64,000 bases of DNA, from positions 481-64,480 of the forward strand of contig VBFZ01000026.1 of NCBI GenBank assembly GCA_005880805.1, read 5' to 3'. Source of the stretch: Chloroflexota bacterium. GTDB lineage: Bacteria; Chloroflexota; Limnocylindria; Limnocylindrales; CSP1-4. Positions 6,901 to 34,354 of the stretch are shown here, in pieces (the stretch's first letter is position 1; each line of letters opens with the position of its first letter). A program made the translations under genes and the position numbers. The notes under the pieces are model-generated. The model worked only from the letters and a program-made list of their open reading frames with translations, made no database searches and was not told the origin of the DNA.

Positions 6901-8295
6901 CTATCTCGGCTTCGCCGCCGACTCCAGCTCCGGTTTGGGCTGACCCTCCCGCCCCACGGCGGTCGTCGCGACCGTCCCGACCTCGGAGGTCAGGGCGTCC
7001 TCGAACCCCGCGCTGACGTCCGGCGTCCCGCTGACGGCATGGGCGACCTCGTGGAGGAGCGTACCCGCGTACGCCTCGAGCGAAGCCAACTGGTCGCGCT
7101 TGATGACGATTCGGCCTTCCTTGGGTTCCCACACGCCGGCAGCCTCTGCATAACCGCTCGCGCCGAGGCGCATCGTCGTCGAGACGAGGATCTCGCGGAG
7201 CCTGGACGGCCGGCCGCCGCCGCGCAGGGCCAGGATCTCGTCCGTCCGGTCGAAGATCGCGCGTTCCTCGGGCGACAGGTCGGCCGGGTCGACGAACGAG
7301 AACTGGAAGCTCTCGTTCCACTGCGACTTGAAGCGATCGAGGTCGATGATCGGCGCACCGGTGATGTCGAGCGCCCCGGCGAGCTTGCGCCGGATGTTCT
7401 GCGGTACGACCACAACCCGATATCCGTCGTTGCGCGCCCGGTCGACGAAGTCGCGTGCGGCGTTGAGCTCCTGGGGCGTGAGGAAGATGACCCTGCCACT
7501 CGCGTTGAGGACCTGGCAGGCATGCACTCCAACGTCGACCAGCTGCACCTCGTCGTGCCAGCGTCCGGTCTCGAACTTCGAGAGATCCTCGGCCAGAGCG
7601 CTGGCCACCCCCTCCGAGGTCGCCGCCAGCACGATCGCCTTGACCCGGTCCGTGTAGGCGGTCCGGCCGACGTTCGATCGCTCGCGGTTGAGCGCCGCCC
7701 GCAGAGCCTTGGTGGGAGAGGTGATGTCGTAGCTGAAGAGGTAGTTGCGCTCCTCGGCGACGCGCAGGCCGTTGACGTAGATGCGGGCCGCCCATCTCGG
7801 CCGGGCGAGGACGACGCCGTAGGGGGTCTCCTCGAGGACCTCGTCGCCGGCGTAGTGGCGGAAGAGCGCCTTGGCCGCCCGGACGTCCTCGTCGGCGACG
7901 CCGGTCAGCTCGACGTCGATGTCGGTGAAGCCGTGCTTGGCCTGCTTCTCTGTGGTGATGTCGCCGAACCGGGATCGGATGCGGACACCGACCCCCCGGC
8001 GGTCGAATGTCGCCAGGGCATCCTTCAGCCCGACGCCGAACTTGCCGACGACCTTCTCCGGGTTGGCCAGCTTCTCGCGGTTCTCGTTCTGCGTGAGGTG
8101 CTCGTAGCGGAGCCCGCGTCCGAAGTCGCGAACGTGCCAGCGACCCCCGGCGTCCTTCGCGATTTCGGGATCCGCGCTGCCGGTCAACGCCGCCTCGTCG
8201 AGCGCGTTCGCGATCACCTCGCGGATCGCATGCGCGACCGTCCAGTTCTCCAGGACGCGCTCGATGTTGAGGTCGAACTCCCGGCGCGACGTCAC
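6901..8295 (-). CDS. GHKL-superfamily ATPase (MutL/MORC/Hsp90-type Bergerat fold) fused to a C-terminal HExxH zincin-like (SprT/Wss1-like or ImmA-like) domain
   Basis: N-box EVIANALDEA, G1 box VRDFGRGL and G2 box GKFGVGLKDA in the first ~130 aa. C terminus has ...MRLGASGYAE...GRIVIKRDQLASLEAYAGTLLHEVAHAVSG...FEDAL (HExxH plus a downstream E). GTG start at 8295; the gene stands alone with its own upstream repeat region. Confidence 0.7.
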   Translation of the reverse strand: MTSRREFDLNIERVLENWTVAHAIREVIANALDEAALTGSADPEIAKDAGGRWHVRDFGRGLRYEHLTQNENREKLANPEKVVGKFGVGLKDALATFDRRGVGVRIRSRFGDITTEKQAKHGFTDIDVELTGVADEDVRAAKALFRHYAGDEVLEETPYGVVLARPRWAARIYVNGLRVAEERNYLFSYDITSPTKALRAALNRERSNVGRTAYTDRVKAIVLAATSEGVASALAEDLSKFETGRWHDEVQLVDVGVHACQVLNASGRVIFLTPQELNAARDFVDRARNDGYRVVVVPQNIRRKLAGALDITGAPIIDLDRFKSQWNESFQFSFVDPADLSPEERAIFDRTDEILALRGGGRPSRLREILVSTTMRLGASGYAEAAGVWEPKEGRIVIKRDQLASLEAYAGTLLHEVAHAVSGTPDVSAGFEDALTSEVGTVATTAVGREGQPKPELESAAKPR

Positions 8296-8445: not shown

Positions 8446-9108
8446 TCAGAAGTTCGGCGGCGAGATTGCGGACACGATCTCCGCCTGCTCGTCGCCGAGC
8501 GCGCGGGCCTTGTGGGGCAGGCCCGAGTCGTAGTAGATCGAGTCGCCCTCATTGAGCTCGTACTCCACGTCGCCGACCTGGATCGCCACGCGCCCGCGCA
8601 GGACCAGCGCGCACTCCTCACCTTCGTGCGCCATCGCGGCGCTGTCGAGCCCGGGGAGGAGACGCACGATGATCATCTCGATCTTGTGGCGGACGTCGGG
8701 CGAAACCAGCTCATACGAAACCGGCGCGCCGGGTGGCCGGATGACCTTCCGTGACTCCCTGCGGACCACGAGGCCGTTCTCCTCCGGAGCGGTGAACAGG
8801 AGGAACACGGGCACCTCGAGCGCGGCCGCGATCGAGCGGAGGACCAGCAGCGAGGGATAGGCGAGCCCGCGCTCCACGCTGCTCAGGAAGCTTCGCGTGA
8901 TGCCCACGCGGCCGGCCAGGCCGGAGAGGGTCAGCCCGCGTTCTGTTCGGAGGGCCCGGATCCGGCGGCCGAGCTGGTCGTCGCGCTGGACGGCTGCTGC
9001 GCCCTGGCCTGCGGTCCCGCTCCGGCGTCCTGGACCGCGACGCGGACGCGCGGCAGGGATCGGTGTCGGTTCACCGGGAACGCGCCCCTGCCCCGTGGTC
9101 GCGGCCAT
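8446..9108 (-). CDS. XRE-family HTH transcriptional regulator with C-terminal cupin domain
   Basis: HTH (LRTERGLTLSGLAGRVGITRSFLSSVERG) plus cupin (GEECALVLRGRVAIQVGDVEYELNEGDSIYYDSGLPH). ATG at 9108 with AGGGGG upstream; the listed ORF 5' extension was rejected. Confidence 0.8.
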   Translation of the reverse strand: MAATTGQGRVPGEPTPIPAARPRRGPGRRSGTAGQGAAAVQRDDQLGRRIRALRTERGLTLSGLAGRVGITRSFLSSVERGLAYPSLLVLRSIAAALEVPVFLLFTAPEENGLVVRRESRKVIRPPGAPVSYELVSPDVRHKIEMIIVRLLPGLDSAAMAHEGEECALVLRGRVAIQVGDVEYELNEGDSIYYDSGLPHKARALGDEQAEIVSAISPPNF

Positions 9109-9136
9109 GAACGACCCCCTAGCCGGAGTGCCCGCC

Positions 9137-10168
9137 TCAGCGGACGGCGACGTCGACCGGCCGGGTCTCCGTGCCGTATTTGCGCGCGAAGTATGGCAGA
9201 ACCTCATCGCGGCAAACGCGCGCGACGATGTCCGGATCGGGGCTCATGTCCGCCCAGATGATGTGGTCGCAGCCGGCCTCGATGAACGCCTCGAACCGGC
9301 GAATGATCTCCTCGCCGGAGCTGGCCACGCAGAAGGCGGCCAGGAGCGCGTCGTCCTTGACGAGGAGCGCGCGCTGCTCGATGACGCGCGGATCCTGGAT
9401 GAACGTGTAGGCCTCCGGGATCAGCAGCCCGCCGTACACGCGCGCGCCTTCCAGCGCCTGCTCCATGCTCGGGTGGTAGGAGGTGCTGACCCAGGCGGAC
9501 CGGAAGCCCTCCGGCGTCCGCCGGCCGGCCTCGCTGGCCCCTCGCTCGAACGCCGGGGCGAGGACATCGTGATGGACGGATGGCGGCACGCCGACCGCCA
9601 CGTAACCATCCGCGAGCCGGCCCGCATTGGCCGCCATCTTCGGGCCACCGGCGGCGCAGATGATCGGGATGCGCCGGTCCGGCTTCTGATAGAGGTAGAA
9701 GAACGAGTCGAAGTAGCGGCCCTCGTGGCGGAAGTAATCCGGCTCCTCCCAGGCGCGGCGAATGAGGCCGATCGCCTCGACCAGCCGGTCGATCCGCTCG
9801 CGCAGCGGTGGCCAGACGCCTGTGGTCGTCTTCTCGTTCATCGCCTCCCCGGTCCCCACGCCGAGAGCGGTCCGGCCCGGGTACAGCAGCTCGAGGGTCG
9901 CCATCTCGATCGCCACGTCGATGGGCTGGTGCCGGACCCCGATCGGCGGGATGACCATCGGCCCGACCACCGCGCGCTCGGTGTTCGCCAGGAAGGCGGT
10001 GAGCGTCGCCCAGATGCCGGCGCTGTGGCCCGAGCTGTGCTGCCAGGGCAGGGTGTGGTCGCCCTCCCAGATGTGGGTGAAGCCCGCCTCCTCCAGGTCG
10101 CCGACGCGACGCACGTTGTCGCGCACGTCGTGGCAGAGGCACTCCGGGGAGATGCCGAAGGTGACCAT
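9137..10168 (-). CDS. Luciferase-like (LLM class) flavin/F420-dependent oxidoreductase
   Basis: MVTFGISPE...FTHIWEGDHT... is LLM-like. ATG 10168 overlaps the upstream stop as ATGA and has GGGAGGA upstream; the Arg-rich 99-aa extension of the listed ORF was rejected. Confidence 0.8.
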   Translation of the reverse strand: MVTFGISPECLCHDVRDNVRRVGDLEEAGFTHIWEGDHTLPWQHSSGHSAGIWATLTAFLANTERAVVGPMVIPPIGVRHQPIDVAIEMATLELLYPGRTALGVGTGEAMNEKTTTGVWPPLRERIDRLVEAIGLIRRAWEEPDYFRHEGRYFDSFFYLYQKPDRRIPIICAAGGPKMAANAGRLADGYVAVGVPPSVHHDVLAPAFERGASEAGRRTPEGFRSAWVSTSYHPSMEQALEGARVYGGLLIPEAYTFIQDPRVIEQRALLVKDDALLAAFCVASSGEEIIRRFEAFIEAGCDHIIWADMSPDPDIVARVCRDEVLPYFARKYGTETRPVDVAVR

Positions 10169-10587
10169 CACGTTCCTCCCACGGGCAGGCCGAGCTGCTG
10201 GAACAGCGACGCCGAGTCGTAGTAGACGATCTCGCGGGTGAACAGCTCGCCGTTGTGCTGGTAGACCGAGCAGGCCTTGATCCGGAACTGGCGGCCCGTC
10301 GGCGCGTGCCCGAGGAACTCGCCTTCGTGCGTCCCGATCAGGTCGTACTCCGCGACCACCGTCCGCTCGTCGCCCGCGACGCAGTGGCTGACCTCGATGT
10401 GGAGGTCCGGGAAGCCGCGGTAGAAGACGGCCATGAAGTCGCGCATCTCGGCCTTGCCCCGACACGGTTGCGGCACGGAGACGTCCTCGAAATAGACGTC
10501 GTCGGTGTAGTAGGCGAGGACGGCCTCGAGATCGCCCCGACTCAGGTCGGCGATCTCGTCAAGGACAGCTTGGCGAGGGTCCTGCAT
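10168..10587 (-). CDS. SnoaL-like / NTF2-fold protein (ketosteroid-isomerase-like)
   Basis: 139 aa with an NTF2-like pattern (LAYYTDDVYFEDVS...EVSHCVAGDERTVVAEYDL); GGAGG RBS. Confidence 0.65.
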   Translation of the reverse strand: MQDPRQAVLDEIADLSRGDLEAVLAYYTDDVYFEDVSVPQPCRGKAEMRDFMAVFYRGFPDLHIEVSHCVAGDERTVVAEYDLIGTHEGEFLGHAPTGRQFRIKACSVYQHNGELFTREIVYYDSASLFQQLGLPVGGT

Positions 10588-11512
10588 AGGGCACAGCCTC
10601 CGGCAATCCGAGCAGGCGCACCGCGGCGCCTCCGAAGAAGCTCTGCTCGTCGCTCTCGGTGATGAAGGGCTCCATGTCGTGGCGCTCCGTGTACTCGCGG
10701 ACTCGCCCGAAGAACTCCTTCCCCGTGTCGAACGGCACGTACGGGTAGTCCGTGCCCCACAGGAAACGGTTGAAGACGCCGAGCTTCTTGGCCCATGTCC
10801 AGATCTGGGCGACTCGCCAGAGGGGAGCGGACTCGGCCCAGAACGCGAAGTCGCCGTAGATGTGCTCGAACTTGGCCATGAAGTGCATCGTCTCTTCGGC
10901 CCAGGCGAAGCCGACGTGGCCGATGACGAGCTTGAGATTCGGGAAGTCGACCATCACGTCCTCGAGGTAGAGGGGATAGTCGTACGCGAGCATCTTGCCC
11001 TTCGGGAACATGCTCCATCCGGTGTGCGTGATGATCGGCACGCCCATCGCCTCGGCGGCCTCGAAGAGCGGCCAGATCCGCCGGTCGTTGAGAGCCACGT
11101 AGTTGTAGGAGGGCAGCATCTTGAGGCCCGTCAGACCTTGCTCCTTGATGCCCCGCTCGAAGCGGCGGACCTCGGCGTTGCCACCGATGGGGTTGGCGGT
11201 AAAGAAGCCGTACAGACGGTCCGGCCAGCGCTGGACGAGCGACTGGGCGTAGGCGCCGTTCTCGGGGTCATACGCATCCCAGGGCACGTAGCCGACTCCC
11301 AGCACGAACGCCCTGTCGATGCCGGCGGCATCCATGTCGGCGATCAGGCGTTCACCCGGGACGCAGAAGTCCTCGGGCTGCCACGGCTTGCCGGTGTGCC
11401 AGCAATCCTGGCCGCGGAACATGTTCACGTAGAACTCGCCGAGCTTGCGTGGGAAGTCCACGTCGAACCGCTGCATGTGCGTGTGGGTGTTGATCACGAG
11501 TCCGTCGGCCAT
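10559..11512 (-). CDS. Amidohydrolase-2 family metal-dependent hydrolase (TIM-barrel, COG2159-like)
   Basis: INTHTHM... and GHVGFAW motifs, C-terminal FLWGTDYPY; GGAGGAAG RBS. Confidence 0.8.
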   Translation of the reverse strand: MADGLVINTHTHMQRFDVDFPRKLGEFYVNMFRGQDCWHTGKPWQPEDFCVPGERLIADMDAAGIDRAFVLGVGYVPWDAYDPENGAYAQSLVQRWPDRLYGFFTANPIGGNAEVRRFERGIKEQGLTGLKMLPSYNYVALNDRRIWPLFEAAEAMGVPIITHTGWSMFPKGKMLAYDYPLYLEDVMVDFPNLKLVIGHVGFAWAEETMHFMAKFEHIYGDFAFWAESAPLWRVAQIWTWAKKLGVFNRFLWGTDYPYVPFDTGKEFFGRVREYTERHDMEPFITESDEQSFFGGAAVRLLGLPEAVPYAGPSPSCP

Positions 11513-11549
11513 GGCTTCCTCCGTGTGCTGGTGACTCCTTCGTTCGTGC

Positions 11550-13205
11550 TCAGGCGTCCGGGCCGCCCCGGCGGACCACCTGCCCCGCTCGTGCCGCGCT
11601 GTCGACCACGCCGTCGCGGACGACCGGCGAGCCGTTGACGAGGACGTGCTCGATGCCGGCCGGGGCGGCGCTCGGCTGCCGGTAGGTCGTCCGGTCGTCG
11701 ACCGTCCGCGGGTCGAAGACGACGACGTCCGCGAAGTTGCCCTCCCGAAGGGTGCCCCGCTTGCGCAGCCCCACCCGCTGGGCGGGCAGTGACGTCGACT
11801 TGCGGACTGCCTCCTCGAGGCTGAACAGGCGGCGCTCGCGGACGAAGTGGCCGAGGACGCGGGGGAACGTCCCGTAGGCTGCGGGGTGGGGCTTGCCGCG
11901 GCCGGTCAGGATCGCGTCGCTCTCGGCCGCCCCCAGCGGGTGCCGGAGCAGCTTTTCCAGCCCGGCCTCCTCCTCGAGCTCGCCCGACACGCCGAAGTAG
12001 AGGGCCATCGCATGGCCGTTCTCCTCGAGCACGAGGTCGGCGGCGACGTCGAACGGGTGGACGCCCCTCGCGTCGCCGATCTCCGCCAGGGAGCGACCCT
12101 CCAGCGGCTTGTTGCGCTCGCTCTCGACCCACATGATCGAAACGTTCTGCCAGCCGGTCGCCTCGACGAGGTTGTGCGGCCAACCGCCTGGCGTCCAGCA
12201 CGGCCAGCCAGGCACGTCCTCCTCGATGGAACGGCGGATCCGCGCACGCACTTCGTTGTCGCGGAGTCGCTCCAGGAGCCCGTCGACGCCGCCGGCGAGC
12301 GCCCAGGGCGGGAAGATCGCGAGCAGCGTTGTGTTCGCAGCAATGTACGGGATGACATCGAAGCCGCTGTCGACGCCCCGCTCGCGGGCTCCCTCGTGCA
12401 GCTCGATGATCGCGTCGATCTTCGGCCAGTTCGGCCGCCCGAACGCCTCGATGTGCGAGTGCTGCGCGGGTACGCCGTTGACCTCTCCGACACGGATCAC
12501 CTCCTTCGTCGCGGGAAGGAGCGTCTCGCTCGAACCACGGATGTGGCTGGCGTACAGCGCGCCGAACGGCTCGAGCTCGGCGGCCAGGTCTTCGATTTCC
12601 TCGGGCGGAGCGAAGATCCCCGGCGCATACAGCAGCCCGCTCGAGAGGCCCCAGGCCCCTTCCTCGAGCGCCTTGCGCAGCTGGTCGCGCATGCGGGTGC
12701 GCTCGTCGGGCGTGAGCTGGCGGCCCTCGAACCCGACCTCGTGGATTCGCAGCGCGCCATGGGCCACCAGCGGGACGACGTTGAACATCGTCCCGTGCTG
12801 GTCGAGGTAGTCCAGGTATTCGCCAAAGCCGGTCCACCCTGAGGGCAAATCGCCCGCGCGCAGGAAGGTCGTGTAGCTCTCGAGCTGCGCCCGCGTTGCC
12901 GGGTTGATCGGGGCGGGAGAGTACCCGCAGTTCCCCGTGACGAGGGTGGTGATGCCCTGCCCGGCGAACGGCGCAAGGGTGTCACCGTGCGTCGAGTCCG
13001 CCAGGACGAAGTCGCTGTGGGAGTGGATGTCGATGAAGCCGGGCGCGACGACTCGATCGGTGGCATCGATCTCGAGCTCGCCGCGCCCGTCACCGAGGCG
13101 GCCCACGGCCGCGATCTTCCCGTCCGAGATGCCAAGGTCGGCCGGGAACCAGGGGTTTCCGGTTCCGTCGACGACCCGGCCGTTTCTGATGACGACGTCG
13201 AACAT
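11550..13205 (-). CDS. D-aminoacylase (N-acyl-D-amino-acid deacylase) family amidohydrolase
   Basis: MFDVVIRNGRVVDGTGNPWF...GFIDIHSHSD...VTGNCGYSP motifs typical of the D-aminoacylase family. Confidence 0.8.
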   Translation of the reverse strand: MFDVVIRNGRVVDGTGNPWFPADLGISDGKIAAVGRLGDGRGELEIDATDRVVAPGFIDIHSHSDFVLADSTHGDTLAPFAGQGITTLVTGNCGYSPAPINPATRAQLESYTTFLRAGDLPSGWTGFGEYLDYLDQHGTMFNVVPLVAHGALRIHEVGFEGRQLTPDERTRMRDQLRKALEEGAWGLSSGLLYAPGIFAPPEEIEDLAAELEPFGALYASHIRGSSETLLPATKEVIRVGEVNGVPAQHSHIEAFGRPNWPKIDAIIELHEGARERGVDSGFDVIPYIAANTTLLAIFPPWALAGGVDGLLERLRDNEVRARIRRSIEEDVPGWPCWTPGGWPHNLVEATGWQNVSIMWVESERNKPLEGRSLAEIGDARGVHPFDVAADLVLEENGHAMALYFGVSGELEEEAGLEKLLRHPLGAAESDAILTGRGKPHPAAYGTFPRVLGHFVRERRLFSLEEAVRKSTSLPAQRVGLRKRGTLREGNFADVVVFDPRTVDDRTTYRQPSAAPAGIEHVLVNGSPVVRDGVVDSAARAGQVVRRGGPDA

Positions 13206-13277
13206 GGCCTCCTCGGGCGTTTCGATCGCGTGCCTTCTCCAGAGGTAGATGAGGTGCGCGGCCGAAGCCGCGCGCCG

Positions 13278-14744
13278 TCAGAACCCGGGGTTGGCCTTCA
13301 GGAAGGCGTCGATCTCGGCCTGGGCCTTCTTGTGTTCGGCCGCCGGATCGGAGCCATGGAACGCGGCCGAAACGGCAGCCTCCACGACGTCCGAGATCTT
13401 CTGGTACGCGGCACGCGTGCCGTACCGATTGCCCTTGAACTCCTGCTGCTTGAAGGTGACCTCGACGGCCGGCTTGTCGGCAGCCGGAATCGAGGCGTCG
13501 GTGTACGGCGCGGTGTACGAGGGGTAGCCACTCTCGTCGGCGGCCTCGAACGTGTGGAGCTCCTCGCGGCGCGTCAGCAGCCCGAGCTGTGTCGCGGCGT
13601 TGGAGTAGTGCTTGATGAGGTCGAGCGCGGCCTCCTTGTAGGGGCTGGTCTTGGGGATGCCGAAGCACTCGCCGACGAACTGGCCGCCCGACTGGGGCAG
13701 GCTGCCGCCGTAGCCGGGGATGATCGAGACCTCGACCGGATCGCTGCCCAGCGCCGACAGGTTCGGGTCGCGGGCCTCGTACCAGATGTGCTGGTAGTCG
13801 ATGATCATCGCGGCCTTGCCGCCCAGGAAGACCTTCTTCGCCTCGACGTCATAGATGCCCCACGGCGACTCGATGACGTCCTTGGGCATGGTCGGCAGGA
13901 GCTCGATCATGTCCTTCGTGGCCTTGATCGCGATGGGGTCGTCGAACTTCACCTCGCCGTTGGGTCCGTACAGGTCACCGCCATTGAGGTGGTACCACAC
14001 GCACCACTTGGGGAACAGGTAGAGCGGCGCCCAGCCGTCCACGTAGCCGTACGTGTCGCCCGACCGGAACTTCTTCGCCGCCGCCTGGAAGTCGGCGTAC
14101 GTCTTCGGGATCGCGACGCCGGCGTCCGCGAACATCTTCTTGTTGCAGTACAGGACGTAGGTGTAGACGTTGCTCGGCAGGCCGTACCACTTGCCGCTGG
14201 CCGACTTGCCGGCCTCGATGGCGACCTTCAGCATGCCGCTCTCGTCGACGGTATGGCCGAGGTCGGCGAGTGGCGTCAGGTACTTCTCGTAAAGGTCGAC
14301 CCACGCGCGCCAGAGATACGCCACGTCCCAGCTCTCGCCGCCGCTTTCGAACGCGGGAGTCAGCTTCAGCGGGAGCGGCCCGAAGGCCTCGCGGGTGAAT
14401 TCCACCTTCACGCCGGTCCGCTTCTCCCAGTCGGGCGTGACCATCGCGTAGAAGCCGGTGTGGTTCGCGAGCAGGACCTTGAGCGGCCGCGTGAGGTTGA
14501 ATGAAGGCGCGGTCGACGCGGCAGCACTGGGGGATGGGCTCGCGGCGGCAGAGGCCGCCGTGGATGCGGCAGGCGATGGACTGGCCGCCCCGGAACACGC
14601 GGCGAGCGCGGCGCCGATGCCGGCGAAGGCGCTGCCCTGCAGGAACCGCCGGCGGGTGATGTCCCTCGTCAGCATGTCGTTGAGCTGGCTCGGCCCTTGT
14701 TTGTGCTCGTCCATGACTTCCTCCTCGATCACTGGCGTATCCAT
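13278..14744 (-). CDS. ABC transporter substrate-binding lipoprotein (family-1, sugar-type) with Tat signal
   Basis: TRRRFLQGSAFAGIGAALAACSG (twin-arginine motif + lipobox). An alternative start exists 30 nt downstream (14714), created by a duplicated RBS+ATG. Confidence 0.85.
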   Translation of the reverse strand: MDTPVIEEEVMDEHKQGPSQLNDMLTRDITRRRFLQGSAFAGIGAALAACSGAASPSPAASTAASAAASPSPSAAASTAPSFNLTRPLKVLLANHTGFYAMVTPDWEKRTGVKVEFTREAFGPLPLKLTPAFESGGESWDVAYLWRAWVDLYEKYLTPLADLGHTVDESGMLKVAIEAGKSASGKWYGLPSNVYTYVLYCNKKMFADAGVAIPKTYADFQAAAKKFRSGDTYGYVDGWAPLYLFPKWCVWYHLNGGDLYGPNGEVKFDDPIAIKATKDMIELLPTMPKDVIESPWGIYDVEAKKVFLGGKAAMIIDYQHIWYEARDPNLSALGSDPVEVSIIPGYGGSLPQSGGQFVGECFGIPKTSPYKEAALDLIKHYSNAATQLGLLTRREELHTFEAADESGYPSYTAPYTDASIPAADKPAVEVTFKQQEFKGNRYGTRAAYQKISDVVEAAVSAAFHGSDPAAEHKKAQAEIDAFLKANPGF

Positions 14745-14784
14745 GACTTCCTCCTCCGAAGTCGGTGTTGCCGTCCGTGGCCGC

Positions 14785-15786
14785 CTACTTGACGGCCCCT
14801 TCGCCGAGTCCGCGGATGAGATAGCGCTGCATCAGGAGGGCGATCGTCAGGACCGGCAGCGAGGCGATCAGCCCGGCCATCGACAGCTGGGGTTCGATTC
14901 GGTTGATGGGATCCATGAGGTTCACGATCGCGGGCGCGAGCATCGGGGTGCTGCCCACGTAGAGCACCTTGGAGACCAGCAGGTCGTTCCAGGACAGTAC
15001 GAACCCGAACACCGCGGCGGTCACCACGCTGGGCACCGTCAGCGGCAGGACGACCCGGCGCAGCGCCTGCAGCCGGCTGGCGCCGTCGATTCGCGCGGCG
15101 TGCTCGAGCTCGGGCTCGACGCCCTCGAACGTCCCGATCAGGATCCACGTGACCAGCGGGACGGTGAGCGCGATGTGACCGATCGCCATCCCGGGCAGCG
15201 TGTCGATCAGGTGAAGGCCCTTGAAGATCGCGACGAGCGGCACGAGGATCGCGACGCCCGGCAGCATGTAGGCGATCATCACGGCGGTGTACGTCGCGCT
15301 TCGGGCGGGAAACCGAAGCCGGGCAATCGCGTAGGCCCCCAGGGTCCCGAGCAGCGTCGTGACAATCGCGGCTGTTGTTGAGACCAGCAGGCTGTTCCGC
15401 AGTCCTTCCTCGAAGTACGGGATCCGCATCAGCTGGTCGAAGGCGACCGTCGTCGGGCTCGGCGGGATCACGTGCGGTCCGGTGAGCAGGTCGACGCGCC
15501 GCTGGAAGGCCCCGAGCACCACGACGAACCCGAACGGCACGACGATCACGACCAGGACGCCGATGGCCAGGATCCAGGCCACGACGCGCGCGCCCAGGTC
15601 CTGGCGGAGCGCGTTGAGGCCCTGCCACAGGAGCGCGAGGCCGGCCAGCGTGGCCACGGCCCAGGCCCAGAACGGAAAGCCGAACGGTCGCGCGATCTGC
15701 AGCAGCTCGAGGAGCGCGGCGGCGAGGACGAGGCCGCCGCCGGCGACGGCGGCTGCTCGAGCCAGGCGCGGATCGGACGCGTTCAC
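14785..15786 (-). CDS. ABC transporter permease (MalG-like, carbohydrate type)
   Basis: EAA-type loop IDGASRLQALRRVVLPL; GTG 15786 overlaps the stop of the upstream permease (GTGA). The listed 658-aa ORF is a read-through artefact. Confidence 0.75.
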   Translation of the reverse strand: MNASDPRLARAAAVAGGGLVLAAALLELLQIARPFGFPFWAWAVATLAGLALLWQGLNALRQDLGARVVAWILAIGVLVVIVVPFGFVVVLGAFQRRVDLLTGPHVIPPSPTTVAFDQLMRIPYFEEGLRNSLLVSTTAAIVTTLLGTLGAYAIARLRFPARSATYTAVMIAYMLPGVAILVPLVAIFKGLHLIDTLPGMAIGHIALTVPLVTWILIGTFEGVEPELEHAARIDGASRLQALRRVVLPLTVPSVVTAAVFGFVLSWNDLLVSKVLYVGSTPMLAPAIVNLMDPINRIEPQLSMAGLIASLPVLTIALLMQRYLIRGLGEGAVK

Positions 15787-16721
15787 GACAGGATCGACCT
15801 CGCTCGACCCCTGGTGAGCAGCAGGGCGAGCACGACCACAAAGCCCGTGACGATGTACGCCAGGACGGCCCCGTACCCGAAGTCGGTCTGCTCGAAGGTC
15901 GTCTTGAACGTGTAGAAGTAGACGTTGTAGGTGGAGTAGCGGCCGGGTCCGCCGCCTGTGAGCGCGAAGATCAGGTCGAAGAGCTGGACCGTGATCAGGA
16001 CCTGAATGATGATCGCGGCCACGATCGTCGGCCGCAGGAAGGGCAGCACCACGTAACGGAAGCGCCGCCAGCGACTCGCCCCATCGATGCGCGCCGCCTG
16101 GATCGTCTCGTTGGGGAGGTACTGCAACGCGACGAGGAACATGAGCGCGAGGAGAGGCATGGTCTTCCAGATGTGGATGGCCGTGAGCATGTAGAGCGTC
16201 CCGGGCACGCCGCCCAGGAAGATCGGCGACTGGTCGACGAGCCCGGCGTTCACGAGCCACTGGCCCAGCAGTCCCCGCCGGGAGTCGAGGAACCACTGGA
16301 ACATCGCGGCCACGACCACCGGCGGTAGCGCCCAGGGGATGAGCAGAGCGGCGCGGACGATGCGCCGGCCGGGGAATCGCTCGTTCAGGACGAGGGCGAC
16401 GCCGAGGCCGACCAGGACGCCCAGCACGGCCGCCGGGATCACGTACATCAGGGTCTGGACGACGGCCTGGCTGAAGATCGGGTCGGACGCGATCCTGGCC
16501 CAGTTCGCAAGACCCACGAACGCGCCGAGCTGGCCGGGCGCGGCACCCCGCCCCGACACCGTGAGAAGCAACGAGTAGAGGACCGGGTAGCCGACCAGTC
16601 CGACGAACAGCAGCGCCGTCGGCACCAGGAACAGCAGCGCGTAGGCCTGGCTCTCGCGGCGGATCGACAGCCGGCTGAACCGGTTGCCCATCGTCCGCGC
16701 GGTGGCGACGCCGGACGCCAT
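15783..16721 (-). CDS. ABC transporter permease (MalF-like, carbohydrate type)
   Basis: ARIDGASRWRRFRYVVLPFLRP; ATG overlaps the ATPase stop (ATGA). Confidence 0.85.
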   Translation of the reverse strand: MASGVATARTMGNRFSRLSIRRESQAYALLFLVPTALLFVGLVGYPVLYSLLLTVSGRGAAPGQLGAFVGLANWARIASDPIFSQAVVQTLMYVIPAAVLGVLVGLGVALVLNERFPGRRIVRAALLIPWALPPVVVAAMFQWFLDSRRGLLGQWLVNAGLVDQSPIFLGGVPGTLYMLTAIHIWKTMPLLALMFLVALQYLPNETIQAARIDGASRWRRFRYVVLPFLRPTIVAAIIIQVLITVQLFDLIFALTGGGPGRYSTYNVYFYTFKTTFEQTDFGYGAVLAYIVTGFVVVLALLLTRGRARSILS

Positions 16722-17842
16722 CAGACAGCCACGTCCCAGGAACGGACGGTGGCTGGCTCATCCTCGACCACGATCCGCTCGCCCGAGGTGGCGTCGAAGA
16801 AGTGCAGCAGCGACCGGACGAAGGTCACACCGACCTCGTCGCCGACCCCGACGACGTGCTCCCCCGGGACGCGGGCGCGCAGGCTCACGTCGCCGACCGA
16901 GACCGTCGCGTAGAGGTCCGGCGCCACGACCTCGGTGAGGGTCACCTTGCCAACCATCGGTGCGCCACGCGACGAGGAGATCGTCACTCCTTCGGGGCGG
17001 ACGCCGACCACGACCGGCCCGGCCGGCAGACCCCGCCGGCCCGCGAGATCGACCCACACCGGGCCGGAATCGAAGCGCAGTCGCCCCTCTTCCTCGCGGA
17101 TCTCGCCGCGCACGAAGCTCATTGGCAGCCGTCCAACGAAGGACGCCACGAACCGGTTCGCGGGCCGTCGGTAGATCGCCGTCGGCGTGTCGTACTGCTG
17201 GACCGAGCCGCGCGCCATCAGCACGACGCGGTCACTCATGGCCTCCGCGTCGTCCTGATCGTGGGTGACATAGATGAAGGTCGCGCCGAGGCGCTGGTGG
17301 ATGCGCTTGAGCTCCTCGCGCGTCGTCGCTCGCAGGTTCGCGTCGAGGTTGCTGATCGGCTCGTCGAGCAGGAAGACCTTGGGGCTGCGGACGATCGCGC
17401 GGCCGAGCGCGACCCGCTGACGCTCGCCGCCGCTCAGCGCGCGGGGCTGGCGATCCAGGAGGCCCCGGATGCCGAGCATCTCGGCCACCTCTTCGACATG
17501 CCGGTAGCGCTCCTGCCGGCCGAGGCCCCGCAGCATCAGCGGGAAGGCGATGTTGTCCCGCGCGTTCATGTTCGGATAGAGCGCGTAAGACTGGAACACC
17601 ATGGCGACGTCCCGGCGCTCCGGGGTGACGTTGGTGATGTCCGCGCCATCCATGAGGATCCGGCCGGACGTCACCTCCTCGATCCCTGCCAGCAGTTTGA
17701 GGATCGTGCTCTTGCCCGATCCGGACGGCCCGAGGATGCAGGTGAACAGCCCGTCCTCGAACGTCAACGACGTCTCCTGCACGGCGTCGGCCGCCAGGCC
17801 CGGGTAGCGCTTGACGACGCGATCGAGCCGGACCTCAGCCAC
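16721..17842 (-). CDS. ABC transporter ATP-binding protein (MalK/UgpC-like, with C-terminal TOBE-like domain)
   Basis: Walker A GPSGSGKST, signature [14 protein letters not shown], Walker B FLLDEP; GTG start with GGGAGGGG upstream. Confidence 0.9.
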   Translation of the reverse strand: MAEVRLDRVVKRYPGLAADAVQETSLTFEDGLFTCILGPSGSGKSTILKLLAGIEEVTSGRILMDGADITNVTPERRDVAMVFQSYALYPNMNARDNIAFPLMLRGLGRQERYRHVEEVAEMLGIRGLLDRQPRALSGGERQRVALGRAIVRSPKVFLLDEPISNLDANLRATTREELKRIHQRLGATFIYVTHDQDDAEAMSDRVVLMARGSVQQYDTPTAIYRRPANRFVASFVGRLPMSFVRGEIREEEGRLRFDSGPVWVDLAGRRGLPAGPVVVGVRPEGVTISSSRGAPMVGKVTLTEVVAPDLYATVSVGDVSLRARVPGEHVVGVGDEVGVTFVRSLLHFFDATSGERIVVEDEPATVRSWDVAV

Positions 17843-19298
17843 CCGCCCCTCCCGTGGCCGAGACCGGCACCGCCGGCTGCCTGGCGCCGGCCGACCGCGC
17901 CCATTCGACCTGGACGAAGTCCGGGGTGGTATTCAGGTCGGCCGCCAGGAACTCGATCTCGTAATCGGCGAGCGGCCGGCGGCCAGCGCGGGCGGCGACC
18001 CTCCGCAGGTACGACCGCCGCAGTCGGCCCAGGTCGACCTCCGTGACGTCCATCTCATCGACCGTCTCGGGCAGGACGATCCGCTCGCCGGGCCGATCCT
18101 CGTTCCGACGGCCGACCGTGATCTCGACGCCCATCTCGCGCGCCAGCGTCAGCTGCGCGGTCGGGTGCTTCCCGGCGCCGGTGTACTCGGTCTCCTGCAC
18201 GACGACCAGCTCGTCGGCGTCGAACTCGCGAGCGACGACGAGCGCGGCTGCGAGCGACGTGTTGCCGGCCGGCCCACGCTCCATGCCCTCGAGATCGGCG
18301 AGGAGCTGGGTCGTGAAGAAGACCTCGCCCTGGGTGACCGTAACGTAGCGGTCGAGGTAGCGGAGCCCGCGCGCCGAGTTGCGTGGCACGTCCACCCGGT
18401 CCGGGTCGACGCTGAACGGGAAGCCGAACCCGGTGTGGCCCGTGGTGAACGACTTGCGATTGAAGTCCCGGTCGCTCGCCATGTGGAGGCCCGTCAGGTC
18501 GACGCTCGCGCCGATGACCGCCGTGTCCGTGGCACCGGCGCCGCGGAGGCCTCGCGCCGTCCCCGTGACGTTCCCGCCGCCACTGTGGGTGGCGATGATC
18601 GCCGCCGGGTGCCGCCCGAACCGCTCAGCGCACTCGAGGGCGATCTCGCGACCCAGGGTCTCGACGCCGAGCATCGCGTACGGGGTGTAGAGGCTGGCGT
18701 TGAAGTAGCCGGTCTCCTCGAGCAGCAGCAGGTGGAGGTAGAACAGCTCCGGTCCGACGGTCAGCTGCCAGACCTCGGCGCCGTACGCCTCGCAGGCACG
18801 CGTCTTCTCGAGCACCTCCGGCTGGCCACGCCCCGCGGAGTCGAAGACCTCCTGGAGGATCAGCGCTTTCAGCCCGTACATCGCCGCTTGCGACGCGACC
18901 GCCGCGCCGTAATTTCCGGAGGTCGCCGCGATCACACCGCGGAAGCCCTGGTCGGCGGCGTGAGCCAGGCACATCGACGCGCGACGCGCCTTGAAGCTGC
19001 CCGACGGGTTGGCCGCCTCGTCCTTGACGAGGATCCGGGCGCCCTTGCCGGCCGGTGCCGAGCGTCGGACGAGCTCCGTGAGCCGTGTCAGCTCGAGCAA
19101 CGGCGTGTCGCCGACCTTGTGCCGCAGCTGGATCTGGCGGACGTCCTCGATGCTGTAGGGAGGGCTCTCCGCGAGCGCCTCGGTATCGAAGGCGATGCCA
19201 CCGTCGAGCTCGTAGCGTTCGTAGTCGATGCCGACCGAGCGGCGCATGATTTCCGTTCGACGCGTCATGACCGCCGCATACGACTCGTCGGGCATCAT
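17835..19298 (-). CDS. PLP-dependent fold-type-II enzyme, 2-amino-4-oxopentanoate thiolase beta subunit (OrtB)-like
   Basis: PLP-lysine motif KDEAANPSGSFKARRA; ~487 aa; immediately downstream of and overlapping (ATGA) a small OrtA-like gene. Confidence 0.6.
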   Translation of the reverse strand: MMPDESYAAVMTRRTEIMRRSVGIDYERYELDGGIAFDTEALAESPPYSIEDVRQIQLRHKVGDTPLLELTRLTELVRRSAPAGKGARILVKDEAANPSGSFKARRASMCLAHAADQGFRGVIAATSGNYGAAVASQAAMYGLKALILQEVFDSAGRGQPEVLEKTRACEAYGAEVWQLTVGPELFYLHLLLLEETGYFNASLYTPYAMLGVETLGREIALECAERFGRHPAAIIATHSGGGNVTGTARGLRGAGATDTAVIGASVDLTGLHMASDRDFNRKSFTTGHTGFGFPFSVDPDRVDVPRNSARGLRYLDRYVTVTQGEVFFTTQLLADLEGMERGPAGNTSLAAALVVAREFDADELVVVQETEYTGAGKHPTAQLTLAREMGVEITVGRRNEDRPGERIVLPETVDEMDVTEVDLGRLRRSYLRRVAARAGRRPLADYEIEFLAADLNTTPDFVQVEWARSAGARQPAVPVSATGGAGG

Positions 19299-19672
19299 CG
19301 CCGAGGTCGCCCCCCGGAGCGGCGAGCGTCCGTCGAACCGCCGCCCTCATCCAGCGAGTGGCGAGCCTCCAGGCCGAGCCGGAGGAGCGCCGGAACCGGA
19401 TCGCCAAAATTGGCTGGATTGCGCGGGTTGACCTCGACGAGCCGTCCGCCGACCTCGCGGTCCAGCAGCGTTCGTACCGTCGCGTTTGAGCCGAGGTCGG
19501 CGCCGGCGACGAGGAAGCCGCGGACCCGGGCGACGAAATCCGTCAGGGCGGTGTCCGGAGGCACATTGCGCGCCCGGGCCGGCGCCCGCAGGACAACCCG
19601 CTCGATCTCGACCCACTCGCCTTCCGGAACGTGAACTGAGGCAATTGGGGGATCGCGTGGGGAGTCCGCCAT
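19295..19672 (-). CDS. Small subunit, 2-amino-4-oxopentanoate thiolase alpha (OrtA)-like
   Basis: EGEWVEIERVVLRAPARARNVPPDTALTDFVARVRGFL resembles the OrtA pattern (GDWVQIhnIVL..P..RAP.VPeDT...VKGFL); ATG 19672 with GAGGAGGAG RBS. Confidence 0.5.
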   Translation of the reverse strand: MADSPRDPPIASVHVPEGEWVEIERVVLRAPARARNVPPDTALTDFVARVRGFLVAGADLGSNATVRTLLDREVGGRLVEVNPRNPANFGDPVPALLRLGLEARHSLDEGGGSTDARRSGGRPRR

Positions 19673-19788
19673 CTCCTCCTCGATGAAGCCAGGACCCACG
19701 GAACGCTGTCACGCACGGTATGTCATCACCGGGCCTTGCGTCAACGCATATCGTACAGGCAGGCGCGAGCGACGAGGAGGTAGTGACC

Positions 19789-21147
19789 GTGTCGAGTCTC
19801 GTCCAGGGTGAGCCGCAGGCTGCGCTGCCGGAAGGGTTCAGGGGCGAGCTGCTGGGGCCTGGCAGTGACGCATACGAGTCCGCGCGACGGGTTTTCAACG
19901 GGATGATCGACCGCCGGCCGGCGCTGATCGCGCGGTGTCGCGGCGTGTCGGACGTCCAGGCGGCAATCGGGTACGCGCGGGCGAACGACTTGCCGGTCGC
20001 GGTCCGCGGTGGCGGCCATAACACGGCGGGGCACGGAACGTGCGATGGCGGCGTGCTGATCGATTTCTCGGTGATGCGAACCGCGCGCGTCGATCCGGCG
20101 TCCCGGACGGTTCGGGCCGATCCGGGCTGCACGTGGACCGATTTCGACACCGAGACTTCGGCCCACGACCTGGCGACGACCGGCGGCACGGTGGGGAGCA
20201 CGGGCATCGGTGGGCTCACGCTGGGCGGCGGGCTCGGCTTCCTCATGGGCAGCTTCGGCCTGTCGTGCGACAACCTCCTGTCGGTCGACCTGGTCACCGC
20301 GGAGGGGGATTTCGTCACCGCCAGCGGCGAGCTGAACAGCGACCTCTTCTGGGGTGTCCGCGGCGGGGGCGGCAATTTCGGCGTTGTGACGTCCTTCGAG
20401 TACCGGCTCCATCCGGTCGGCGAGCTCCTCGCCGGGCTCGTGATCTATCCGATCGAAGCCGCCCGGGCGGCGCTGGAGCTCTTCCGCGACGTCACCTCCT
20501 CCGGCCCCGACGAGCTGAGCTGTGCGTTCGCGATGATCACGGTGCCCGACGGCCCGCCCGTCGCGGTGATCGCGGCGTGCTTCAACGGCCCGATCGAGGA
20601 CGGCGAACGGTTGGTCGCGCCACTCCGCCGCCTCGGTCCTCCGATGGACGACGGCATCCGGCCGATGCGCTACCCGGAGGTCCAGCGCCTCTTCGCGGAG
20701 ATCCCGTTCGGCCTGCAGAACTACTGGAAGGGGCACTTCATCCGGGAGATGCCGGACGACGTGATCGACGCGAGCGTGCGCTCCTTCGAGGGCGTGACCT
20801 CGGCGCATTCGGCGATCCTGATCGAGGCCCCGCACGGCGCCGTGCGCCGGATCCCGGACGGCGAGACGGCGTTCGGGCAGCGTGCGGCCCGCTACAACGC
20901 CAGCGCGCTCGCGATCTGGGAGGACGGCGACCAGGCGCGGCACGTCCGCTGGTCGCGGGAGTACGCCGACGCCGTGGCGAGGTACGCCTCCGGCGGCTAC
21001 ATCAACTACCTCGCCGCAGACGCTTCTGCCGACGAGGTCGCCGGGGCCTACGGCCACGAGCGCTACGAGCGCCTGTTGGCACTCAAGCGCAAGTACGACC
21101 CCACGAACGTCTTCCGCTTCAACCAGAACATCGACCCGACGGAGTGA
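19789..21147 (+). CDS. FAD-linked oxidase, berberine-bridge-enzyme-like (paralog 2)
   Basis: AVRGGGHN, GGGVG motifs and C-terminal YERLLALKRKYDPTNVFRFNQNI; GTG 19789 sits 8 nt after GAGGAGG (start uncertain; ORF open from 19720). Confidence 0.8.
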   Translation: MSSLVQGEPQAALPEGFRGELLGPGSDAYESARRVFNGMIDRRPALIARCRGVSDVQAAIGYARANDLPVAVRGGGHNTAGHGTCDGGVLIDFSVMRTARVDPASRTVRADPGCTWTDFDTETSAHDLATTGGTVGSTGIGGLTLGGGLGFLMGSFGLSCDNLLSVDLVTAEGDFVTASGELNSDLFWGVRGGGGNFGVVTSFEYRLHPVGELLAGLVIYPIEAARAALELFRDVTSSGPDELSCAFAMITVPDGPPVAVIAACFNGPIEDGERLVAPLRRLGPPMDDGIRPMRYPEVQRLFAEIPFGLQNYWKGHFIREMPDDVIDASVRSFEGVTSAHSAILIEAPHGAVRRIPDGETAFGQRAARYNASALAIWEDGDQARHVRWSREYADAVARYASGGYINYLAADASADEVAGAYGHERYERLLALKRKYDPTNVFRFNQNIDPTE

Positions 21148-22813: not shown

Positions 22814-22913
22814 CTCGACGGTCGAAATTGTCATAAGTCGGTGCGGCCACATTGGGGACTTGTTGTGACGCGGATGCCGCGCGGATCATGCCGCCCTGTA
22901 CAACCCGGAGAGG

Positions 22914-24017: not shown

Positions 24018-24087
24018 GCCTTCGAGTCCCTCGGCCACCGGCCGGCGGCCCTCTTGCCGGCCGGTGGCACCCTCCCTGGAGATCAGC

Positions 24088-24414
24088 ATGGTCGTGAAGC
24101 GCGCCGCCGACGTGAAGCTCGTCGTGTTCGTCTGTGAGGCGGGGATGGGCTCGAGCCTCATCGGGGCGAACCAGCTCAAGAGGCGGATCAAGGATCTCGG
24201 CCTCGACGTCCGCGTGATCCACTCACCGGTGAACGAGATCCCGCCCAATACGGACGTGGTCGTCTCGCATCAGGGACTGTCCGAGCGAGCCCGCAAGGCC
24301 GCCCCCAACGCTGTGGTCCTCTCGTTCAAGAACTTCCTGAACAACAGCGCGTCGGAGTATCTGCTTCGGAGCCTCGCAGCCGGCGAGGACGTCGCCGAAC
24401 CGCTGGCATCCTGA
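24088..24414 (+). CDS. PTS mannitol-family EIIB component (separate polypeptide)
   Basis: KLVVFVCEAGMGSSL matches the MtlA EIIB phospho-Cys region (IIVACDAGMGSS). ATG 24088 has GGAG 7 nt upstream (ORF open from 24064). Confidence 0.8.
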   Translation: MVVKRAADVKLVVFVCEAGMGSSLIGANQLKRRIKDLGLDVRVIHSPVNEIPPNTDVVVSHQGLSERARKAAPNAVVLSFKNFLNNSASEYLLRSLAAGEDVAEPLAS

Positions 24415-25148: not shown

Positions 25149-25149
25149 C

Positions 25150-25449: not shown

Positions 25450-25459
25450 CGCGTCCGAC

Positions 25460-34249: not shown

Positions 34250-34354
34250 GTTGACTGCCCGGCGGCTGCAAATTCATCGACCGGTAACGCGCCGATGAAT
34301 TCAGGGACCTCGAGGGGTCATACGGTCGAAACAGACGATCGACAGGAGCTTCTC

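Follow-up and report, generated by a model that had tools for sequence, protein, structure and literature searches.

Association of the 2-amino-4-oxopentanoate thiolase OrtAB with a D-aminoacylase-family hydrolase in a putative catabolic gene cluster of Chloroflexota and other phyla

The presence of the 2-amino-4-oxopentanoate (AKP) thiolase OrtAB has been taken to mark anaerobic ornithine fermentation and, lately, also anaerobic hydroxyproline fermentation. What, then, might OrtAB do in a 64,000-nucleotide stretch of Chloroflexota DNA (GenBank assembly GCA_005880805.1, contig VBFZ01000026.1, positions 481 to 64,480; hereafter the window), where ortA and ortB head a block that encodes an ATP-binding cassette (ABC) importer, a D-aminoacylase, an amidohydrolase_2 protein (AH2), a SnoaL-like protein, a luciferase-like oxidoreductase (LLM) and an XRE-cupin regulator? 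An original prediction, made from the letters of this stretch, proposed an uncharacterised catabolic route for an N-acylated D-amino-acid conjugate, possibly glycosylated. Our analysis points to a twelve-gene, substrate-inducible catabolic system in which an aminoacylase-initiated route leads to AKP and then to OrtAB, a reading to which we assign a probability of roughly 55%.

Profile hidden Markov models (HMMs) confirmed the membership of both proteins in the OrtA and OrtB families. OrtA scored 87.7 bits against PF22010 (cut-off 27) and 86.1 bits against NF040739 (cut-off 70), and OrtB scored 740 bits against NF040741 (cut-off 550). The next-best model for OrtB, threonine synthase, reached 66 bits; the possibility that the 487-residue protein is a threonine-synthase paralogue, which the original prediction had named as its own potential refutation, is therefore rejected. 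Judged by these scores, both of which pass NCBIfam equivalog cut-offs, the homology is genuine. In addition, ortA lies directly upstream of ortB and is translationally coupled to it, as in nearly all of 85 loci, and OrtB is 59–67% identical to the OrtB of canonical Ord/OraSE clusters.

To what extent has the enzyme itself changed? We compared alignment columns of OrtB among 50 sequences from Ord/OraSE contexts, 14 from Chloroflexota/Thermoleophilia/Bacillota contexts, and 5 from Desulfobacterota contexts. In all three groups 149 of the 487 columns were invariant, and only two positions were class-specific (M42L and V148L), both of them conservative. The lack of non-conservative class-specific change suggests unchanged chemistry and probably also an unchanged substrate, (2R)-2-amino-4-oxopentanoate. 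The intermediate is thus probably AKP itself, and the OrtAB of this cluster would be expected to cleave it in a CoA-dependent reaction to acetyl-CoA and D-alanine. A neighbour-joining tree of OrtB placed the sequences from aminoacylase contexts in two clades, separate from the Ord/OraSE clade. OrtA is less conserved: the twelve-gene type described below has NPRNPA(N/D)FG (NPRNPANFG in the window copy) where other OrtA commonly have NP.Y.H.FG. Loss of this Tyr/His motif was considered as a mark of altered function and given little weight, because two canonical OrtA (loci L014 and L015) also lack the His.

The genes that would be required to form AKP by the two established pathways were then sought around this OrtAB. 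Ornithine fermentation, the background given in the original prediction, is correct and incomplete, since in anaerobes AKP also arises from trans-4-hydroxy-D-proline, the ring of which is opened by the glycyl radical enzyme HplG (PMC13450708). The window cluster shares with the oxidative L-ornithine cluster of Clostridium sticklandii and C. difficile the adjacent and coupled ortA-ortB pair and the expected products acetyl-CoA and D-alanine, but not the ornithine racemase, B12 aminomutase and 2,4-diaminopentanoate dehydrogenase. No Ord, OraS/OraE, Orr or Or-4 was detected in the window or in any locus of the twelve-gene type; canonical reference loci were verified for Ord, OraE, Or-4 and Orr with NCBIfam equivalog models (L022). 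In contrast to the anaerobic ornithine cluster, the hosts are aerobic soil Chloroflexota and Dormibacteraeota, and the partners of OrtAB are the D-aminoacylase, LLM, SnoaL-like protein, AH2, ABC importer and a BBE-type FAD oxidase. The HplG pathway shows that OrtAB can be fed by a compound other than ornithine and that AKP can be formed from a D-configured precursor. The annotated genes of the window and of the inspected loci include no glycyl radical enzyme-like gene of ~800 aa, and neither such an enzyme nor its activase lies in or near clusters of the window type. An 820-aa neighbour in L014, considered as a possible HplG, is instead a GGDEF protein. The O2 requirement of the FAD oxidase is in keeping with an aerobic route, unlike the HplG pathway. 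In literature on OrtA/OrtB, AKP, HplG and 4-oxo-D-proline, we found no description of an aerobic or aminoacylase-linked OrtAB. The cluster would act like the final step of the ornithine and HplG pathways; it belongs to neither gene cluster and represents a third genomic context for AKP thiolase that is conserved across phyla.

The strongest result is the link between OrtAB and a single subfamily of D-aminoacylases, which appears whichever of the two is used as the starting point and extends over at least five phyla. A scan with an OrtB profile, limited to one genome per species, yielded 80 loci that were then searched with the window proteins and clustered all-against-all. All OrtAB-linked aminoacylases have in common a conserved insertion of ~60 aa (WPxWxPGxWPHNLxxATGW), which occurs neither in solved D-aminoacylases nor in the single aminoacylase that adjoins a canonical Ord cluster (L057). 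L057 is also the only aminoacylase-type locus with Ord/OraE. For the reciprocal scan, metagenome contigs were selected with a profile of the insertion-bearing subfamily only (80 loci). OrtB was encoded in 20 of the 23 selected loci of at least 12 kb and in 12 of the 14 of at least 15 kb. Ord and OraE were each absent from all 23 OrtB-positive loci of at least 10 kb; the same 23 loci encoded SnoaL (17), an M28 peptidase (15), a protein with a conserved Cys motif (14) and a LIV-type binding protein (14). This association in both directions indicates a cluster type distinct from the ornithine pathway and makes entry through hydrolysis of an N-acyl-D-amino-acid-type substrate the best reading.

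Examination of the neighbourhood of OrtAB homologs, a check suggested by the original prediction, revealed the same gene set in other Limnocylindria, in a second Chloroflexota metagenome-assembled genome (MAG) and in Dormibacteraeota. Seven Limnocylindria MAGs encode the whole operon in the same order together with the divergent BBE oxidase (58–90% identity). In the second Chloroflexota MAG, LLM←SnoaL←AH2 faces XRE→OrtA→OrtB→ABC×4→aminoacylase→BBE, and in a Dormibacteraeota MAG and another contig the order is LLM→OrtA→OrtB→ABC×4→aminoacylase→XRE, SnoaL←AH2, BBE→. These distant carriers of the twelve genes are 49–78% identical to the window proteins, and the set was also found on further metagenome contigs. 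In each of the three gene orders the cluster is accompanied by an ortholog of the BBE oxidase (51–76% identity), the gene for which in L086 lies inside the operon after the aminoacylase; this oxidase is the twelfth member of the functional set and was missing from the original prediction. The overlap of the AH2 and SnoaL genes (26–29 nt) is kept in every gene order, even with the pair inverted, and LLM lies directly upstream of ortA with a 4-nt overlap in L088 and L091. The retention of twelve genes despite shuffling among three orders is strong evidence of one function. The arrangement is not a chance juxtaposition, given its conservation in many genomes, and the alternative that the block comprises several unrelated operons is rejected because the gene set survives three rearrangements. 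The predicted single, tightly coupled block thus behaves as one functional unit.

A parallel type of cluster was identified in other phyla. In a Bacillota MAG, in Thermoleophilia/Gaiellales and in several Desulfobacterota, OrtAB occurs with a homologous aminoacylase (45–56% identity), a SnoaL-like protein and a homologous XRE-cupin regulator. Accessory genes of these sister clusters encode peptidases of the M28 (with a PA domain) and M24 families, HapK-like and flavodoxin-like proteins, LIV-type ABC components, and two paralogs of the Cys-motif family, for which there is no Pfam match. In Desulfobacterota and Bacillota, the clusters also encode an alanine racemase (TIGR00492, 398 bits) and an alanine dehydrogenase (TIGR00518, 497 bits), which fits D-alanine as the product of OrtAB. 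Thermoleophilia-type clusters encode an M24 peptidase with a prolidase N-domain and an S15 X-Pro dipeptidyl peptidase/CocE protein, and their operons end with LLM orthologs of 65–73% identity.

The Cys-motif family (motif CP[YF]...C.GD..CR) has no Pfam or NCBIfam model and no match among solved structures. It comprises forms of ~200 aa and of ~280–310 aa, exemplified by L018:8750-9679, L063:14433-15269 and L063:18874-19482, with homologs in L020, L021, L026, L028, L034, L067, L070, L079, L083, L096 and L097. The gene adjoins OrtAB in nearly all aminoacylase-type clusters outside the twelve-gene type, often with a flavodoxin-like gene nearby, and its product is a candidate for the AKP-forming step in anaerobes. 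A further context of OrtAB occurs in the aerobic bacilli Neobacillus niacini and Bacillus sp. FJAT-29814 (L013 and L016, 9650-17000), where OrtA-OrtB is accompanied by a class-III aminotransferase, a GntR regulator and a polyamine-type ABC importer. Neither Ord/OraSE nor an aminoacylase is encoded there, a context that suggests formation of AKP by transamination in these bacilli.

Eleven consecutive, co-directional genes, which overlap or are separated by no more than 72 nt, occupy positions 8446-19672 of the minus strand (Table 1) in a window of ~69% G+C. Every gene named in the original prediction is present on this strand at its predicted position; the count of twelve given there should read eleven, as its own list does. 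The same eleven products appear in independent gene calls on four other contigs with identical OrtB. Records of this exact OrtB come from soil metagenomes and from MAG GCA_035639095.1, labelled as a Chloroflexi bacterium, and the nearest genome matches belong to Candidatus Limnocylindria/Limnocylindrales. Junctions were read directly off the sequence. The predicted ATGA overlap at ortA/ortB and GTGA overlap at permease-1/permease-2 were found, and the two other junctions that had been given as ATGA are TGATG (ATPase/permease-1, 1-nt overlap) and GTGATG (SnoaL/LLM, a GTGA or a 1-nt overlap). The ortB and ATPase genes overlap by 8 nt (GTGGCTGA), the AH2 and SnoaL genes overlap by 29 nt, and the remaining gaps are 40, 72, 37 and 28 nt, with a ribosome-binding site of the GGAGG type before most. 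The start of the regulator gene is most likely ATG 9108, and not the first start of its open reading frame (ORF) at 9207. Terminator-like sites within the block are at the level of chance (5 found, 4.8 expected), and no promoter-like sites were found within it, in a scan that is uninformative in DNA of 70% G+C. No Rfam family, whether riboswitch or other RNA element, matched at E <= 1, and the divergent ortA/BBE intergenic region of 116 nt holds no operator-like inverted repeat, with only two ribosome-binding sites pairing. From this layout, the eleven-gene block is predicted to be a real operon.

Table 1. Genes of the OrtAB-aminoacylase cluster in the window, in order of transcription, followed by the divergent oxidase gene.
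Feature	Coordinates	Strand	Product length	Remarks
ortA, AKP thiolase small subunit	19295..19672	-	125 aa	From ATG 19672; ORF extendable to GTG 19699
ortB, pyridoxal phosphate (PLP)-dependent AKP thiolase large subunit	17835..19298	-	487 aa	PALP domain
ABC importer ATPase, UgpC/MalK type	16721..17842	-	373 aa	ABC_tran + TOBE_2/OB_MalK; UgpC model 365 bits
ABC permease 1	15783..16721	-	312 aa	BPD_transp_1
ABC permease 2	14785..15786	-	333 aa	GTG start; BPD_transp_1; best NCBIfam matches GlcU/MalG-like
Substrate-binding lipoprotein, twin-arginine (Tat) signal, CUT1 type	13278..14744	-	488 aa	SBP_bac_1 and SBP_bac_8
D-aminoacylase-family metallohydrolase, insertion-bearing subfamily	11550..13205	-	551 aa	Amidohydro_3
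Amidohydrolase_2 protein (AH2), ACMSD-like fold	10559..11512	-	317 aa	PF04909; no NCBIfam model match
SnoaL-like (NTF2-fold) protein	10168..10587	-	139 aa	PF07366 and PF12680
Luciferase-like oxidoreductase (LLM)	9137..10171	-	343 aa (343-344 aa)	Bac_luciferase
XRE-HTH + cupin regulator, PuuR-like	8446..9108	-	220 aa	HTH_3/HTH_31 + Cupin_2
Divergent BBE/EncM-like FAD oxidase	19720..21147	+	452-475 aa by start	FAD_binding_4 + BBE

HMMs confirmed the D-aminoacylase, SnoaL-like, LLM and XRE-cupin assignments of the original prediction. The best solved relatives of the aminoacylase are an N-acyl-D-glutamate deacylase (3gip, 266 bits), a D-aminoacylase (1m7j, 245 bits) and the GlcNAc1A deacetylase OngB (9kb1, 194 bits); its score against NCBIfam PRK09061 is under the cut-off. 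Its motifs GFIDIHSHSD, GNCG, SHIR, HSH and ESDA are invariant in the subfamily and align with those of 3gip and 1m7j (HxH, Cys, His, His, Asp). In solved enzymes, loop 2 of the insertion domain sets specificity, with Leu298 in AfDam, Arg295 in BbDam and Gln298 in OngB (PMC12017989). The window enzyme has the fold and the aligned metal and catalytic motifs of AfDam (1m7j), Bb3285 (3gip) and OngB (9kb1), and differs by its added ~60-aa insertion. The alignment with the solved enzymes breaks at residue ~295, where this insertion starts. An attempt to map specificity residues failed since the insertion replaces the loop concerned, and specificity is not transferable from the solved enzymes because the insertion sits exactly at loop 2.

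The importer is of the CUT1 type, as indicated by a TOBE-bearing MalK/UgpC ATPase, two BPD_transp_1 permeases and an SBP_bac_1 lipoprotein, which bears out the predicted sugar-type importer with its MalK-like ATPase, two permeases and Tat-lipoprotein binding protein. The binding protein has a twin-arginine motif (TRRRFLQG) and a lipobox (LAAC) and is weakly similar to solved binding proteins, the best of which is GacH (43.7 bits). The suggestion of a glycosylated substrate had been based on this importer. However, the importer differs among clusters with the same enzyme set: L106 and L107 encode an NCS1 permease and a LIV-type ABC system, L091 has no ABC genes between OrtB and the aminoacylase, and the sister clusters encode LIV-type amino-acid importers. 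This variation (CUT1, LIV, NCS1) means that a glycosylated substrate is not supported. Of the predicted route for a glycosylated N-acyl-D-amino-acid conjugate, the aminoacylase-OrtAB link is strong, and the glycosylation lacks support. In L091 (5208-8573), LLM-OrtA-OrtB-aminoacylase directly follow same-strand genes for a hydantoinase/allantoinase-like amidohydrolase, a member of the Asp/Glu/hydantoin-racemase family and an allantoicase, and in L107 the NCS1 permease within the cluster is of the allantoin/hydantoin type. These neighbours may reflect chance or may hint at a cyclic ureide-type substrate.

The LLM protein is most similar among solved structures to the F420-dependent secondary alcohol dehydrogenase Adf (1rhc, 190 bits), followed by FGD and hydroxymycolate dehydrogenase, and these enzymes catalyse the alcohol-to-carbonyl chemistry that would be needed to generate a 4-oxo group. 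It is under every curated NCBIfam cut-off (TIGR03554, 153 against 420 bits; TIGR03557, 147 against 210 bits), and the FMN-dependent 'reverted' LLM subfamily is nearly equal in score (135 against 153 bits). By homology, LLM is related to the FGD/Adf group as a member of no defined family, and is probably an F420-dependent alcohol dehydrogenase. The SnoaL-like protein scores 80.9 bits against TIGR02096 (ketosteroid-isomerase-related), below the cut-off, and its solved relatives are SnoL, AclR and ester cyclases. A 410-aa database protein that appeared to be a SnoaL-LLM fusion (P0280) was discarded as evidence of coupling, since it is a frameshifted translation with an out-of-frame middle and C-terminus.

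AH2 belongs to the Amidohydro_2 family, as had been predicted, although this name is incomplete as a description. An AlphaFold model (pLDDT 93.8) has as its top Foldseek matches LigW, ACMSD, gamma-resorcylate decarboxylase, IDCase and LigJ (TM 0.6–0.69, 13–21% identity), and residues H10, H12, H163, H199 and D255 are invariant. In this model AH2 resembles ACMSD-type decarboxylases/hydratases, and not an amide hydrolase. A role as a sugar lactonase was at first favoured, by analogy of LLM with FGD and from sugar-acid contexts; the structural neighbours are of the ACMSD type and not cog3618 lactonases, and such a role is now no more than possible. Homologs of AH2 elsewhere (45–62% identity) are found in clusters that resemble acid-sugar or amino-sugar-acid catabolism. 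Those of 58–62% identity lie in L092 (8505-14131) and L095 (1173-16833), in clusters resembling D-glucosaminate/GlcNAc1A catabolism. One set of such neighbours comprises an amino-acid permease, an enolase-superfamily enzyme, RidA, a PfkB kinase and KDPG aldolase, and the other comprises an aminoacylase-like enzyme, RidA, D-Ser-dehydratase-like PLP enzymes, CE4 and DHDPS.

The best solved relatives of the divergent oxidase are EncM (364 bits) and 6-hydroxy-D-nicotine oxidase (202 bits). Three paralogous BBE/FAD_binding_4 oxidases are encoded within the 64 kb (5341-6705 on the minus strand, and 19720-21147 and 34223-35752 on the plus strand). The one at 5341-6705 is ~40% identical to the cluster oxidase and lies just downstream of the operon, past a gene for a 464-aa protein (6901-8295, minus strand) with no Pfam match. 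The regulator has the HTH_3 + Cupin_2 architecture and the catabolic-operon location of PuuR/PauR-type repressors of amine catabolism; the L014 homolog, the sole one tested, scores 77.6 bits against the PuuR model, below the cut-off. Of the first 85 loci, 19 have a regulator homolog beside OrtAB, and two of these are canonical Ord clusters. The presence of related regulators with canonical Ord-OrtAB clusters fits a shared effector such as AKP.

The pathway that we propose would begin with uptake of a small nitrogenous compound by the ABC importer. The specialised D-aminoacylase would hydrolyse the N-acyl (or peptide-like) D-alpha-amino-acid function of this compound, and the BBE-type FAD oxidase, the SnoaL-like protein and the ACMSD-like AH2 would rework its side chain. 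LLM, probably F420-dependent, would oxidise a 4-hydroxyl to a 4-oxo group, giving (2R)-2-amino-4-oxopentanoate or a very close analogue, which OrtAB and CoA would cleave to acetyl-CoA and D-alanine. The PuuR-like regulator would repress the operon until a pathway metabolite appears. The analysis shows which genes are present, how the operon is laid out, that the twelve-gene set is conserved and tightly tied to the aminoacylase, and that both established AKP-forming systems are absent; we infer how the steps follow one another, that F420 is used, what BBE, SnoaL and AH2 contribute, how the operon is controlled and, above all, the kind of substrate. Formally, the set may be likened to beta-oxidation (oxidase, isomerase/hydratase, alcohol dehydrogenase, thiolase).

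Several observations weigh against this aminoacylase-initiated route. The use of F420 is proposed from homology below family cut-offs, and the roles suggested for BBE, SnoaL and AH2 come from family-level chemistry only. The window cluster has no alanine-handling gene. The His of the NP.Y.H.FG motif, present in most other OrtA, is lost in the twelve-gene type, such that specificity could differ, and the AH2 homologs of 58–62% identity in amino-sugar-acid-like catabolic clusters indicate a different substrate class. Moreover, an N-acyl-D-amino acid that bears a 4-hydroxy- or 4-oxo-pentanoate side chain is not known as an abundant natural compound. As precursors we weighed 4-hydroxynorvaline or its lactone, 2-amino-4-oxoadipate, D-2,4-diaminobutyrate, 4-keto-aminoaldonates, cyclic ureides and N-formyl-D-kynurenine; the evidence singles out none of these.

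Could the substrate instead be an oxidised amino sugar? An N-acetyl-hexosamine or its aldonic acid would be imported, oxidised at C1 by BBE and/or LLM and deacetylated by an OngB-like aminoacylase, and OrtAB would cleave a 4-keto aminoaldonate and not AKP. An N-acetyl-aminoaldonate is formally an N-acetyl-D-amino acid, OngB has the D-aminoacylase fold and aligns to the window protein (PMC12017989; PMC9537276), and such a substrate would suit the CUT1 importer, the FGD-like group of LLM and the clusters in which close AH2 homologs stand beside RidA, PfkB kinase, KDPG aldolase, CE4 and DHDPS. Yet the window aminoacylase is nearer to N-acyl-D-Glu deacylase and D-aminoacylase than to OngB, the BBE oxidase is far nearer to EncM and 6-hydroxy-D-nicotine oxidase than to carbohydrate oxidases, AH2 is decarboxylase/hydratase-like in fold and not lactonase-like, and the importer varies. 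The ong (GlcNAc1A) cluster pairs OngB with OngC (a fold-type III PLP deaminase), RidA and KDG kinase (PMC9537276); none of OngC, RidA and KdgK is among the twelve genes, only the OngB-related fold being present, and the window cluster is not an ong cluster. No chemically simple path could be written from a 2-amino-2-deoxyaldonate to a 3-deoxy-4-oxo acid, and OrtB conservation favours AKP itself, which together make this substrate unlikely. An oxygen-tolerant hydroxyproline route would retain AKP, formed from a 4-hydroxy-D-proline derivative without a glycyl radical enzyme, for example by LLM oxidation and ring opening before OrtAB. Hydroxyproline and AKP are isomers connected in anaerobes by the HplG-OrtAB route, the LLM family includes alcohol dehydrogenases, and 6-hydroxy-D-nicotine oxidase, the second-best solved relative of BBE, acts on a D-configured pyrrolidine ring. 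The proline-type peptidase families (M24 with prolidase N-domain, S15) that point the same way belong to Thermoleophilia-type sister clusters. The window cluster has no proline-specific peptidase, and an epimerase of the proline-racemase family is missing from all clusters examined. It is not obvious what an N-acyl-D-amino-acid deacylase would do with an imino acid, and no precedent is known for non-radical cleavage of the C5-N bond; we regard this route as quite improbable.

It might also be argued that the host simply has the canonical D-ornithine pathway, with Orr, OraSE and Ord at other loci, and that the neighbours of OrtAB are functionally unrelated to it. OrtA and OrtB do satisfy equivalog models built for the ornithine pathway, and the 64 kb is all that is visible of the genome. 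This explanation has very little probability in light of neighbours that remain beside OrtAB despite three rearrangements and in different phyla, the separate clades of OrtB of the window type, the lack of Ord/OraSE homologs in the window and the lack of Ord/OraE in insertion-bearing aminoacylase loci, as in the reciprocal scan. Equally little credence is due to the biosynthetic direction, in which OrtAB would condense acetyl-CoA and D-alanine to AKP, LLM would reduce it and SnoaL/AH2 would turn it into a small metabolite. In principle thiolases can run in reverse, and natural-product pathways include SnoaL-like 'ester cyclases' and LLM reductases, but the operon encodes a binding-protein-dependent importer and neither an exporter nor scaffold-building enzymes, and the PuuR-type repressor, like the alanine racemase and alanine dehydrogenase of sister clusters, is typical of catabolism.

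The aminoacylase-initiated catabolic route thus remains our preferred reading, and a broader version of it can be put forward tentatively, at somewhat short of even odds. This would be a third, oxygen-compatible and F420-linked route to AKP that starts with a dedicated aminoacylase acting on a D-amino-acid derivative not recognised as a common environmental substrate. It would consist of an aminoacylase-OrtAB core with differing accessory modules: BBE/AH2/SnoaL/LLM in aerobic Chloroflexota and Dormibacteraeota, and the Cys-motif protein with M28 and flavodoxin in Desulfobacterota, Bacillota and Thermoleophilia.

Elsewhere in the window, a complete mannitol-type phosphotransferase system (PTS) block (21287-29858, plus strand) encodes a PRD regulator, EIIC, EIIB, an EIIA-HPr fusion, a 99-aa protein, a 574-aa Zn-type dehydrogenase, a PfkB kinase and enzyme I, and is conserved only in the same-species contigs L001 and L002. 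To our knowledge, PTS systems are unusual in Chloroflexota. Two sigma factors of the extracytoplasmic function type with C-terminal extensions are encoded at 1236-2579 (minus strand) and 32918-33970 (plus strand), one with DUF6596 and one with a SnoaL_2-like domain; the latter position is directly upstream of the third BBE oxidase gene (34223-35752). A stand-alone proline dehydrogenase gene (57765-58727, plus strand) lies beside an aldose 1-epimerase gene and an SDR/LacI block, with no evident operon link.

Automatic annotation implies ornithine or hydroxyproline fermentation wherever ortAB occur, and the pathway proposed here, once worked out, would correct such inferences from metagenomes. 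OrtAB occurs in a different and strongly conserved gene set of abundant, mostly uncultured soil lineages (Limnocylindria, Dormibacteraeota, Thermoleophilia), with a parallel version in relatives of sulfate reducers. The compact cluster, in which all enzymes are soluble, makes heterologous expression feasible as a direct test. If worked out, the pathway would name a new environmental substrate of the D-amino-acid type and would give functions to a distinct D-aminoacylase subfamily, an F420-type LLM, the ACMSD-like AH2 family, which has no NCBIfam model, and a family of the sister clusters that has no Pfam model. If the third route to AKP is real, OrtAB would be a widespread terminal module of D-amino-acid catabolism and not a curiosity of Stickland-type fermenters.

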